A DNA stretch of 64,000 bases from an uncultured Chlamydiae bacterium (GTDB lineage: Bacteria; Chlamydiota; Chlamydiia; Chlamydiales; JAJFMA01). Position numbers and translations under genes: made by a program. Shown piece by piece: positions 39,524 to 47,800 of this stretch (position 1 is its first letter; the number at the start of each line of letters is the position of its first letter). The notes below the pieces were generated by a model, which saw nothing but the letters and a program-made list of their open reading frames with translations, was not told the origin of the DNA and made no database searches. The DNA is taken from contig CAVQMM010000001.1 of the NCBI GenBank assembly GCA_963713615.1, positions 3,296,001 to 3,360,000 on the forward strand, in the 5' to 3' direction.

Positions 39524-42500
39524 ATGGCTACTAGAAGGCGAAAAAAAACATATCCATCGTACAAACCCATCTTAGCAAAGCTGTGGTGGGCATCCCTGCC
39601 GGTCTTTATCGCCGCACAGGGTTGGGTCTTTGCTTCACCTGTTGTTAGAGGTGGTAACGGAGATTCTTGTTTCTCCGCAGAACATTTCTGGCCAATTGCT
39701 GAGGACCTTCAAGGTTTTGAAGGGTATCCGCTCAGTGCAATTGTTGATCGTACTTCTCCACTCGTTATTCACAAGACAGAGAGAGAAGATGTCCCAGTCG
39801 CTCAAAAACCCGGTTTAGAACGGGCTGACTCCAAGCTTGATTGGTTTGCTCAGCAGAAGCCAAGCAGTGAGCGCTTTCGGCTCCCCGAAGGGATTGCGCG
39901 AACATGTACCGAGCAACAATCCAGTCATTTTGACCTTTCTGATGAGCCCCAACCTGCCAACTACCGTCCTTATCTATGCCGACAGGAGCTTGTCCAGAAA
40001 ATTGCAGCAGTGGCATCCGGTCTAGGATCCATCGCGAGCAGTGATCGCCGTACGGGTCAGTGCCTTTCTGCATTCAAGAATGCTCCGACGGCCTGGGGAC
40101 AGCTAGACTATGCCTATCGTGAATGTGCACCCACCTGCTCTTTGGGTACCATGGGAATCCCTGTTTTTGCAGGTAATGGGCCGAATACCACATATAGTTC
40201 CGGCCTAGCCACCTATGGTATTGCTTCCTCTAGTCGATATAATGTTGGCAATCAAGAAGCGAACCGTCCTAAAGGGTCGGATTTGGCGCACATTCCACAC
40301 TTCGCAAATGCTGCAGAACAACAGGTTAGCTCAGCCAAAATTGCTGAACATCGCGACGGCCAGTGGAGTGCTAAGAGCCTTCTAGCAACCAAAGAGAGTT
40401 GTCCTGAATGCATATATCATGAGCACCGCACTCCAGCCCTCCTAACGAGCGGCACAATACTATCCTCCATCGCCGAGGCGTCTCACGGTAGTCAGACTTT
40501 ATCGGATGTAGGCCCAAATGAAGCTTCTGCGTTGTCGCCGGTTTTTATCGTTTCAGCACATCGCTTTGAGTCCCATCCCAGAAGTATTCCTCATCTGATT
40601 TGTGAAGGATGCACGACTACATATGGGCAGATGGCACATGAGGAACAAGGCACCACCGGAGCCTGGGGTATCGTTGCTGCCGACAGGATCGATGTTGCAC
40701 ATCGTCTTGCACCTTTTACTACTCTGCCAAAAATGCTTCATGCGAGTTGTGATCTCTCCTCTCCATCAGCAGATGATGCGTTCGCGAGAGCTCTGGACGG
40801 CCGTGAGACACTCGCACACAAAACAAATGAATTAGTTTTAGGTGGTGGAAGGGAAAATTACGATGCTACCGACTCTATTGATCAGAGTCATTGGGCCCGC
40901 ACAGCACATCTCTTTCATCCATTGGCAGCTCAGAGAGCTGTTGCCGCCTATGCTGGTCAAGATAACTCTGCTATCTGGTCTCTTGTCGCCGCATCACCAA
41001 GATTGCTTTTAGCAGCTGCTAAGGGGCTTTCCTGTATAGGTTCTGAATGTCCGCTTCAGCTTGGTCGTCTAACTCAAGGGCATCCAACGGCAGCCCTCGC
41101 TGCTTTTGACGGCACGGATTACCGCGATATCAGTGATATCCGTCATCTGTCTCCTTTTACCACGAAGGATCTTGCCCCTACCGATCCCTGTCTGTATTGC
41201 GACAAGTCGGCCATGGGTCTTACGACTTTCGAGGATGATACACCGGAATTCTTACAGACGGCTTCGAGAACGTTTTGGAAGTTGGCTCGCGATACCAGTT
41301 TTCCTGGTGAAGATCATCATCAGGACGTCGCAAGATCTACTCCCGATCCTAGAAATTGGGCCGTTCCGGTCAAAGCAGTCGCACAGCTTGCAGCCGCTGA
41401 TAACGCAGCGCTTAACCAGCAACATTCGTCTTTACAAGCGGCGTATGAACCGCAGCAAACTCCAAACTATTGGACAGTGCTTGACCGTTTGGTAGAAGAG
41501 CATCAAGGTTCTCAGTTGGCAGGTGCTCGTTCTCATACAGGTGCGCCTCAGCAGTTTAGTGAGCAAGCTGATCAGTCATCCAGACTTGCTCGTGAGAGTA
41601 CATTTCTGGGTAGAGGACAGGGCGCTTCACGTCTCGATGGTGACATTGACGCTTTTGCATCTTCCCTTCAGTCATTGCGTCAAAAGCGCATGCCGCAGAA
41701 TCTAGAAACAGATTCTACAGCCCAAGCTGTCATTGAGCGTCAACCTCTAGCAGATCAAAGTATTTTTGCACTGGCTTACGAAGGCGCTAACCCTCGTTTC
41801 GAAGGGAACACTCCCTTAACTCGCTCCGCACAGGTGCCTTCGCACGCCTTTGATGAAAAAAATCTTATCGCCGCTGCACGTCAGGTTAGTCAAAAAATTC
41901 AGCATGATGAATTTTTAGATGCCCTTGACCTAGCATCGAGCGATAACCTAGTAGATGCTAACCTTGGAGCTGTCGTAGCTCCGGATTTTGGCAAACTTCT
42001 CTTTTCTGCCGCAGCCGATGTTCTGCCACCAGCTCGAAGTCCTGCCTATGACAAGCCAGTCGTCAGTGCCGATGCAGTAAGTCCTTTGGCTGTACGTGGA
42101 ACTATTCGAGCTAAACGCGAGGCTCAGGAAGCCTTAGCATTGGCGATGCTTGCTGATGCCAATCAAGCCTCTTTGCAATATCCCGAAGTGGATTTGCATC
42201 AGCTAAAGTTCGCTCAGGTTCTCGCGACTTTTGATGCTGATGCGGCTGCCCTGCTAGAAGCTAATGAGAAAGCGGAACTAAAGGCAAAAGAAGTTGCTGC
42301 CTTAGCAGCTATTGAAAATGCGAAAGATGCCCCTCTGCAATATGGCGACACGGATTTGCATCAGCTTAAGCTCGCACAGACGGTATCTGTTCTCGAAAAT
42401 AATGAAGCTGCGGCACTGGAAGCTAATCAAGCTACTGCCTTAGCGGCTTTAGAAGGAAAACATGCCGAGGCTTTAGCAGCGCTTGATGCAGAGCGAATGG

Positions 42501-47800: not shown

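Follow-up and report, generated by a model that had tools for sequence, protein, structure and literature searches.

A 2758-residue type III secretin with a long, family-specific N-terminal extension in an uncultured chlamydia

The window analysed in this study is a 64,000-nucleotide stretch (positions 3,296,001 to 3,360,000 of contig CAVQMM010000001.1, assembly GCA_963713615.1) from the genome of an uncultured chlamydia (G000; 3.97 Mb on three contigs, 99% complete, no N in the sequence). It carries sctC (cdsC), the gene for the type III secretion system's (T3SS) outer-membrane secretin, at 39524..47800 on the + strand. This gene is a single frame, 2758 codons long and free of internal stops; the remaining five frames contain 86–221 stops each over the same interval. 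Hydropathy, conservation and inspection predict a Sec signal peptide at residues 1–37 (39524..39634), with a basic n-region, a hydrophobic core and, read by eye, V-F-A followed by S-P at residues 35–39. Of all 19-residue windows in the protein, the one that starts at residue 23 is the most hydrophobic, and a sequence LAKxWW..P..IA.QG near the N-terminus is conserved in the family of related proteins described below. The predicted signal peptide is followed by a distal conserved block with conserved cysteines (residues 38–620; 39635..41383), a variable middle (residues 621–1390; 41384..43693) and a proximal conserved block of short motifs in acidic spacers (residues 1391–2010; 43694..45553), all on the + strand. 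Neither block gave a confident fold, and the distal block could be assigned to no known family.

Pfam recognized a GspD-like N0 domain at residues 2013–2082, Secretin_N, and Secretin at residues 2526–2699, and had no match in residues 1–2010. No Pfam or NCBIfam model matched the extension, and the family relatives likewise lacked a Pfam match before N0. The core thus consists of N0-N1-N2-N3 and a C-terminal secretin domain, encoded on the + strand by N0 (45554..45778), N1 and N2 (45845..46243), a single N3 after a charged linker of ~95 residues (46529..46738), the secretin (outer-membrane barrel) domain (46739..47638) and a C-terminal tail (47639..47797) that is kept across chlamydial SctC and, by its position, may be S-domain-like. 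A first-pass annotation, made from the letters of the window, had described an uninterrupted 2758-residue open reading frame with a signal-like N-terminus, repeats, an acidic linker and a CdsC-like secretin at its C-terminus, and each of these elements was recovered, the last of them by domain matches, orthology and tree placement.

The extension measured ~1970 residues and the pre-N0 region as a whole ~2010 residues, with 18 cysteines. Fifteen cysteines fell in residues 37–620 (2.6%, versus 1.3% over the 1529 reading frames of at least 300 amino acids in the genome), so that the earlier description of a Cys/His-rich region held as to a real cysteine enrichment, which is nevertheless modest in this copy. 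In eight of nine relatives the cysteine share of the first 620 residues was 2.6–4.5%, and in one (P0012) it was 1.5%. C128, C360xxC363 and C504-C509 were present in every aligned sequence that covered them and C293xxC296 in 7 of 8; C559 was also conserved, as were H462, H520 and H541, with a dense motif at 504–559. In the protein P0018 and in genome G006 a Cys-Cys unit, VPxLLxECC, was tandemly amplified. The middle was far more variable. Its five alanine-rich repeats of 54–68 residues (42173..43117, + strand) share an LQY..DLHQL unit, are specific to G000 and start at about residues 890, 944, 1012, 1080 and 1137; their DNA periods, all in frame, are 204, 204 and 171 nucleotides. The segment 621–1390 was nearly absent from a 1774-residue relative and replaced by unrelated repeats in others (periods of 68, 33/66 and 17/34 residues in three other lineages), and only two columns of residues 701–1400 were conserved in six of seven sequences. 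Over the extension, conservation was sparse (5–29 columns per 100). Motifs of the proximal block (SPGPG, GKVPGG, RFxVEVxPH, GVRREGxLW, LQKKNR and AQxTLF) were set in variable acidic spacers, and residues 1701–2010 were prone to disorder and acidic, with a net charge of −27 and a FoldIndex of −0.11.

TOP-IDP scores of 0.12–0.20 in the extension, versus 0.035 in the core, represent a disorder-like composition and, together with the spacing of the motifs, suggest that the extension is disordered. AlphaFold2 produced no usable model of it: mean predicted local distance difference test scores (pLDDT) were 29 for residues 37–620 and 36 for residues 1393–2240. Since the underlying alignments were nine rows deep, and since N0, itself a known domain, also stayed below 50, these low values do not separate disorder from a lack of data. 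The ESM Atlas contained no usable match for either block.

Within the extension, residues 1721–1730 (44684..44713, + strand) match F-[IL]-x-x-x-A-[HYN]-A and then [ASGD]-[DE], and form a candidate processing site. This internal motif occurred in all 12 family sequences (11 with AxA, one with AYG) and was followed by a small residue and then, usually, an acidic one. In G000 the motif stands 282 residues before N0; of the 11 family sequences that reach this domain, 10 have it at a distance of 249–284 residues, and the distance in P0012 is 177. Two other short patterns were rejected as shared features: [ILV][ILVT]A[QE] shortly before N0 seemed common to an initial set of sequences, but just 7 of 20 further SctC had it, and an enrichment of [ILVF]A[QDEA] in the G000 protein (41 versus 21 expected) was not general.

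Only two secretins were found in the 99%-complete genome, the 2758-residue protein and a 912-residue GspD, which is encoded by a separate and distant gene that adjoins gspE and gspF; a tblastn search with the former gave no match to the latter at E 1e-3. The long protein scored 270 bits with TIGR02517 (GspD; cut-off 351) and 60 bits with TIGR02516 (YscC type; cut-off 238). GspD-like scoring is reported behaviour of chlamydial CdsC (PMC3459982). Orthologues were located directly after sctQ-pkn5 in four of the six other family genomes (G003, G004, G005 and G006), whereas sctC of G001 is not in this position and the contig of G002 ends there. Among all sctC loci retrieved, 29 of 50 included pkn5, and many of the others end early upstream. 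In G000, sctC lies ~42 kb before sctN, outside the sctD...pkn5 cluster, and pkn5 is followed by other sequence. Because the relatives keep the order sctQ-pkn5-sctC, the G000 gene is best read as displaced from its cluster by rearrangement. A short repeated element recurs around T3SS and type II secretion system (T2SS) loci (window 36890-37203, L051:8591-8971, L033:16223-17398 and L052:12942-13310) and also stands right after pkn5; it may relate to that rearrangement.

SctN, SctV, SctJ, SctD, SctO and SctQ were all found in G000, and its SctD is 602 residues long, with the usual Pfam CdsD periplasmic domains. In a quick maximum-likelihood tree of secretin cores (62 rows, Shimodaira–Hasegawa-like approximate likelihood ratio test (SH-aLRT) support only, GspD outgroup on a very long branch), the family formed one clade among chlamydial SctC (10 rows, SH-aLRT 99). 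Foldseek matched the N-domain part weakly to XcpQ and GspD (best E 1.2e-3; none at E 0.001 or better). Identification as a T2SS GspD was rejected, given a score below the equivalog cut-off and a location outside the gspD-E-F-G cluster. Since a GspD-like score is expected for CdsC, orthologues follow pkn5 and the other secretin is the GspD beside gspE, the 2758-residue protein is the ordinary, and only, SctC/CdsC found in G000, and the proposal that it might be a second, specialized secretin was dropped.

All seven family genomes encoded a long SctC, of about 1770–2760 residues. The lengths were 2758, 2357, 2516, 2324 and 1889 residues, at least 1738 residues for a form cut by a contig edge (a separate protein with an identical core measures 1774 residues), and two frames in G006. 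In the latter genome (61% complete) sctC appeared as overlapping frames of 1702 and 1288 codons (L039:7733-16619). Both frames matched a single chain, the collection protein P0018 (2370 residues), which suggests that the split is an assembly error and that this genus has a still longer form. With P0004 (2303 residues), P0005 (2401 residues) and P0012 (1930 residues), at least nine independently assembled long orthologues were available, and the pre-N0 region of complete family proteins ranged from 1027 to 2010 residues. A profile of residues 1–620 retrieved eight matches from 1.84 billion proteins, namely five long SctC and three short fragments, and searches with residues 1390–2010 (about 8000 scored candidates each) retrieved seven long proteins, each of which has a secretin domain, plus one fragment of 337 residues. 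As a single query, the first 620 residues matched in four of six relatives and not in G005 or G006, whose N-termini share only short motifs with G000. No relative of the extension was found outside the family: block profiles found nothing among 19 pre-N0 regions of other chlamydial SctC (best E 0.16) and only the gene itself among all G000 reading frames, and a scan of metagenome contigs confirmed none of 125 pattern matches.

Comparison with G001 gave identities at the three codon positions of 0.54/0.66/0.33 for residues 1–620 and 0.57/0.70/0.36 for residues 1391–2010, with nonsynonymous divergence (pN) of 0.37–0.41 and saturated synonymous divergence (pS) of 0.73–0.74 over both blocks. Across four relatives, third positions in both blocks were near saturation (0.30–0.37) and second positions were 0.50–0.70 identical. 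Both blocks are therefore under protein-level selection. This selection on the upstream DNA, together with the shared long form in independent assemblies, excludes an assembly artefact and makes translation from an internal start near position 45000, the other case in which the annotation would have failed, unlikely, as does the fact that only Met1 is kept in all seven aligned sequences. A search for a further hydrophobic stretch of full signal type likewise found none. The long extension on a CdsC-type secretin is thus real.

Contigs that covered sctC including its extension, mostly at least 99% alike, were found in all four peat metatranscriptome runs inspected (four studies). On the 10.7 kb around sctC, 41 such contigs were counted, versus 12 on a 14.8-kb control stretch; the runs had been chosen by sctC itself, depth was 2–7 and DNA carry-over is possible, so that these counts are not proof of transcription. 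None of the listed contigs bridged the junction between extension and N0 by 31 letters. One contig (depth 3.2) was one base short at 45180, which may be an error. Promoter and terminator scans remained at chance level.

To place this protein among its relatives, 150 genomes of the phylum were scored. Among the 150 of 196 matches listed, 21 were in frames of at least 1500 codons and four in frames above 2000; G000 SctC was the longest intact chlamydial SctC in this survey. Five Chlamydiaceae-sized genomes had SctC frames of 804–1128 codons, so that the earlier statement, which limits the extra length of CdsC to a few hundred residues, is right for these genomes and too narrow for the phylum, given the 21 longer matches. 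Secretins of 1557–4451 residues (P0021–P0032; two are named from Planctomycetia and Binatia) exist outside the chlamydiae, and the idea that the G000 protein might be the longest secretin known was discarded accordingly.

Chlamydial SctC was enlarged in at least three ways. An arm before N0 reaches ~2000 residues in the G000 family and 28–786 residues in other chlamydiae. In nine mapped genomes that form one clade (SH-aLRT 100), 8–20 N3 domains are stacked instead; G168 (L068:1899-8684; 2261 residues, 20 N3), G083 (L069:2528-7846) and G147 (L070:2443-7707) are examples, and P0013 and P0014 are further SctC with such stacks (8–20 N3 or more). G000 SctC was rejected as a member of this group, as it has one N3 and an extension without any N-domain match. 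In G018 (L045:6093-11384), P0019 and P0020, an insert of ~800–1900 residues separates N2 from N3, with Trp/Gly-rich repeats in P0019. The cysteine-rich envelope protein OmcB had a counterpart in 22 of 35 genomes, including all six family relatives, while this query gave no match in any of the nine genomes with N3 stacks or in G090, G018, G129 and G008. This fits Simkania and Rhabdochlamydia, which are reported to be without OmcB and to which, by inference, the OmcB-less clade is similar (PMC6490308). The coincidence of OmcB absence and N3 stacks represents about one evolutionary event and is not a correlation. Many genomes of the N3-stack families had a second, short SctC-like secretin of ~517–690 codons (G119:C2:162092-163165, G013:C3:169110-170174). 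Tandem sctC-lipoprotein-sctC arrangements occurred in G037 (L041:7441-14176) and G144 (L095:749-7306), and G017 (L040:5832-11035) had two adjacent sctC copies, one of them split.

C. trachomatis CdsC (921 residues; PMC4682100, PMC3459982) resembles the G000 protein in its T2SS-like core (N0–N3 and secretin) and in a hydrophilic, chlamydia-specific region before N0; orthologues of both follow pkn5. This region is reported as a 250-residue hydrophilic N-terminal domain (PMC4682100), as against ~2010 pre-N0 residues without detectable similarity in G000, where 18 cysteines, repeats and a conserved internal AxA motif are added and the gene is displaced and followed by a lipoprotein gene. SctC of the OmcB-less clade (G083, G147, G168 and others; 1300–2270 residues) belongs to the same secretin family and differs in where its extra length lies: 8–20 N3 domains stand between N2 and the barrel, which would make the channel longer, and 28–84 residues precede N0. 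T2SS GspD provides the best-scoring NCBIfam model (TIGR02517) and has the GspD-like N0 in common with G000 SctC, beside which there is no gspE or gspF. Proteobacterial SctC (YscC/InvG/MxiD, TIGR02516) has the same role in the injectisome and belongs to another secretin lineage, of ~570–610 residues without a pre-N0 extension. PilQ, the secretin of type IV pili, carries N-terminal AMIN domains, extra modules in the periplasm by which it is anchored to a layer of the envelope. It offers the closest functional analogy, although G000 SctC has no AMIN match and its proposed anchor would be disulfide bonds rather than peptidoglycan. The giant secretins of 2300–4450 residues, some of them named from Planctomycetia and Binatia, are similar in size or longer; their cores are 21–24% identical to that of G000, and neither extension profile matched them. 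A literature search on giant planctomycete secretins found none reported.

For the extension, we favour, at a probability of roughly 45%, the reading that it serves as a flexible tether in the periplasm, with its distal cysteine pairs disulfide-locked into the cysteine-rich envelope. The whole chain would be exported by Sec via one N-terminal signal peptide, and its last 750 residues would build an ordinary barrel with N3–N0 rings in a basal body of normal height. Each subunit would trail a mostly non-globular arm of ~210 kDa from N0 into the periplasm. A normal channel height, with the arm outside the channel, is expected because the extra mass precedes N0, N3 is single and SctD has 602 residues; the suggestion of a long periplasmic spacer, if understood as a taller basal body, is for the same reasons weak. 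The motifs of the proximal block may bind neighbours or partners and become ordered only upon assembly, and the repeat-rich middle would be a spacer of little length constraint. On oxidation of the envelope as the infectious elementary body (EB) forms, distal cysteine pairs would link arms with one another or with OmcB through disulfides and so fix, space or stiffen the injectisomes. The calculated mass of the arm is 211 kDa per subunit and 3.2 MDa per 15-mer, and a scaling law puts its radius at ~13 nm if it were a random coil, as compared with the 29–34 nm reported for the basal body of C. trachomatis (PMC4682100).

Consistent with such a tether, G000 encodes an OmcB-like protein with 42 cysteines, which is present at 65–84% identity in all six other family genomes, while the other chlamydial SctC examined have 0–6 cysteines before N0. 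CdsC is reported among the disulfide-cross-linked envelope proteins of EBs (PMC6752827, PMC13463777), sctC is reported to be expressed at the transition from reticulate body to EB in Protochlamydia (PMC5451489), and a modelling preprint of 2026 explains the poor quality of CdsC models by disordered regions (10.64898/2026.05.06.723290). Several observations, however, weigh against a tether. The low AlphaFold2 confidence would look the same if it reflected a shortage of data, and FoldIndex is slightly positive for most segments. The G000 copy has lost cysteines that relatives keep (positions 134, 168, 217 and 406), P0012 is poor in cysteine over its first 620 residues, and the CxxC pairs could bind metal instead. 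As chlamydiae with OmcB have far shorter, cysteine-poor extensions, a tether is not generally required, and the invariant internal AxA motif would fit processing at least as well.

The main alternative is accordingly that of a pro-protein, exported as one chain and cut at the internal AxA site (residue 1728), which appears possible but distinctly less probable than a permanent tether. Cleavage would yield a secretin of ~1030 residues, whose ~280-residue pre-N0 piece is near the 250 residues of C. trachomatis CdsC, and a freed, cysteine-bearing envelope protein of ~1690 residues, produced in a 1:1 ratio to the secretin; the motif may be the relic of an ancestral signal-peptide end after fusion to an upstream gene. 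Small and then, usually, acidic residues after AxA are the signal-peptidase I pattern, and the presence and position of the motif across the family favour processing, as does the same pattern at residues 17–24 of the SctC from G011, the place at which one would expect the end of a signal peptide. However, no full hydrophobic core precedes the site (best 10-residue hydropathy 0.14–1.64, whereas nine intact N-termini reach 1.54–2.69). The motif is also hardly enriched at N-termini in G000 (loose motif 1.8-fold, plain A[HYN]A 0.9-fold, strict motif no early matches, with crude start calls), two invariant alanines among ~25 near-invariant columns can be structural, and the proximal block was not found as a stand-alone protein, the 337-residue fragment excepted. 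Tether and cleavage are compatible, since a released arm could still be disulfide-linked. A wider proposal, to which we give about the same probability as to the pro-protein, is that a polyprotein SctC gives each injectisome its own stoichiometric disulfide scaffold, and that secretin architecture tracks envelope type across the chlamydiae, with OmcB-bearing lineages adding arms and the OmcB-less clade building far taller channels.

Two further explanations appear improbable, to a similar degree. The blocks could contain unrecognized folds: the distal block would be a compact domain stabilized by disulfides or zinc, with a role as adhesin, scaffold or sensor, and the proximal motifs would add a ring beneath N0 and so make the basal body longer or wider. 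The conserved CxxC pairs, the three conserved histidines and the dense 504–559 motif speak for this, as do beta-strand-like motifs in the proximal block and the extra ring and elongated basal body of 29–34 nm reported in C. trachomatis (PMC4682100); the absence of a confident model and of any Pfam, NCBIfam or usable ESM Atlas match, the sparse conservation and the ordinary size of SctD argue against it. The extension could also be a tolerated expansion, a disordered pre-N0 segment of free length that grew by duplication and has a weak or local function. Pre-N0 regions of other chlamydial SctC are low-complexity and vary widely in length, 19 of them lacked detectable similarity to the family blocks, and the middle is freely enlarged or deleted; yet over ~1200 residues in two blocks pN falls well short of saturated pS and there are invariant Trp, Cys, Gly and Pro, and a cost of ~3 MDa per machine is hard to call neutral. 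Least probable of all, and largely refuted, is that the product is just the last 750–1060 residues from an internal start, a mis-assembly, or a second specialized secretin. Met1699 is kept in six of seven aligned sequences, sctC is displaced in both G000 and G001, and the G006 copy lies in two frames; against this stand the independent long orthologues, selection upstream of residue 1699, the lack of an evident ribosome-binding site before Met1699 or of a hydrophobic core after it, the bridging of both G006 frames by P0018 and the single SctC of G000.

The extended SctC is a genuine, family-specific variant of a known protein, for which the mechanism that we infer rests on sequence. Its length is three times that of C. 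trachomatis CdsC, and lengths of at least 1500 residues are common in uncultured and environmental chlamydiae, with the limit that longer secretins exist in other phyla. The family, apparently uncultured, offers an exaggerated form of the CdsC N-terminal domain, with conserved cysteines and a candidate cleavage site that are open to direct tests; the N3-stack forms predict, from their domain counts, injectisomes with much taller secretin channels. No report of multi-thousand-residue chlamydial SctC or of N3 stacks was found in the mainly open-access literature searched, and prior mention is possible.

Directly 3' of sctC, at 47748..48752 on the + strand, lies a gene for a lipoprotein with tetratricopeptide repeats (TPR) and the lipobox LTGC. 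Pilotins of the PilF/PilW type are outer-membrane TPR lipoproteins that bind the secretin, and the protein encoded here is a pilotin candidate. Its gene is single-copy in G000 and followed sctC in 47 of 55 retrieved loci; it was not found in five Chlamydiaceae-sized genomes, which account for five of the eight misses. A complex prediction with the SctC tail scored 0.04, which is no evidence either way. The T3SS operons of C. trachomatis are reported to encode no pilotin (PMC4682100), for which the TPR lipoprotein could be the missing counterpart.

Other genes in the window comprise three tandem PEP-CTERM genes (32000-34492), similar to ones beside sctC in G002 and G004, and near this cluster a YidD-like gene (31499-31942, − strand). 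Downstream, 49187-54706 encodes an RHS/YD-repeat protein of 1839 residues with DUF6531, and several similar-looking RHS reading frames are among the longest in G000. A Sel1-repeat reading frame (531 residues) and a RhoGAP and Sel1 reading frame (630 residues) at 60231-63951 (− strand) look like host-directed effectors. An IS66-family element occupies 55148-58016, and one contig from the RNA runs joins 55148 to 58016, the empty-site form.

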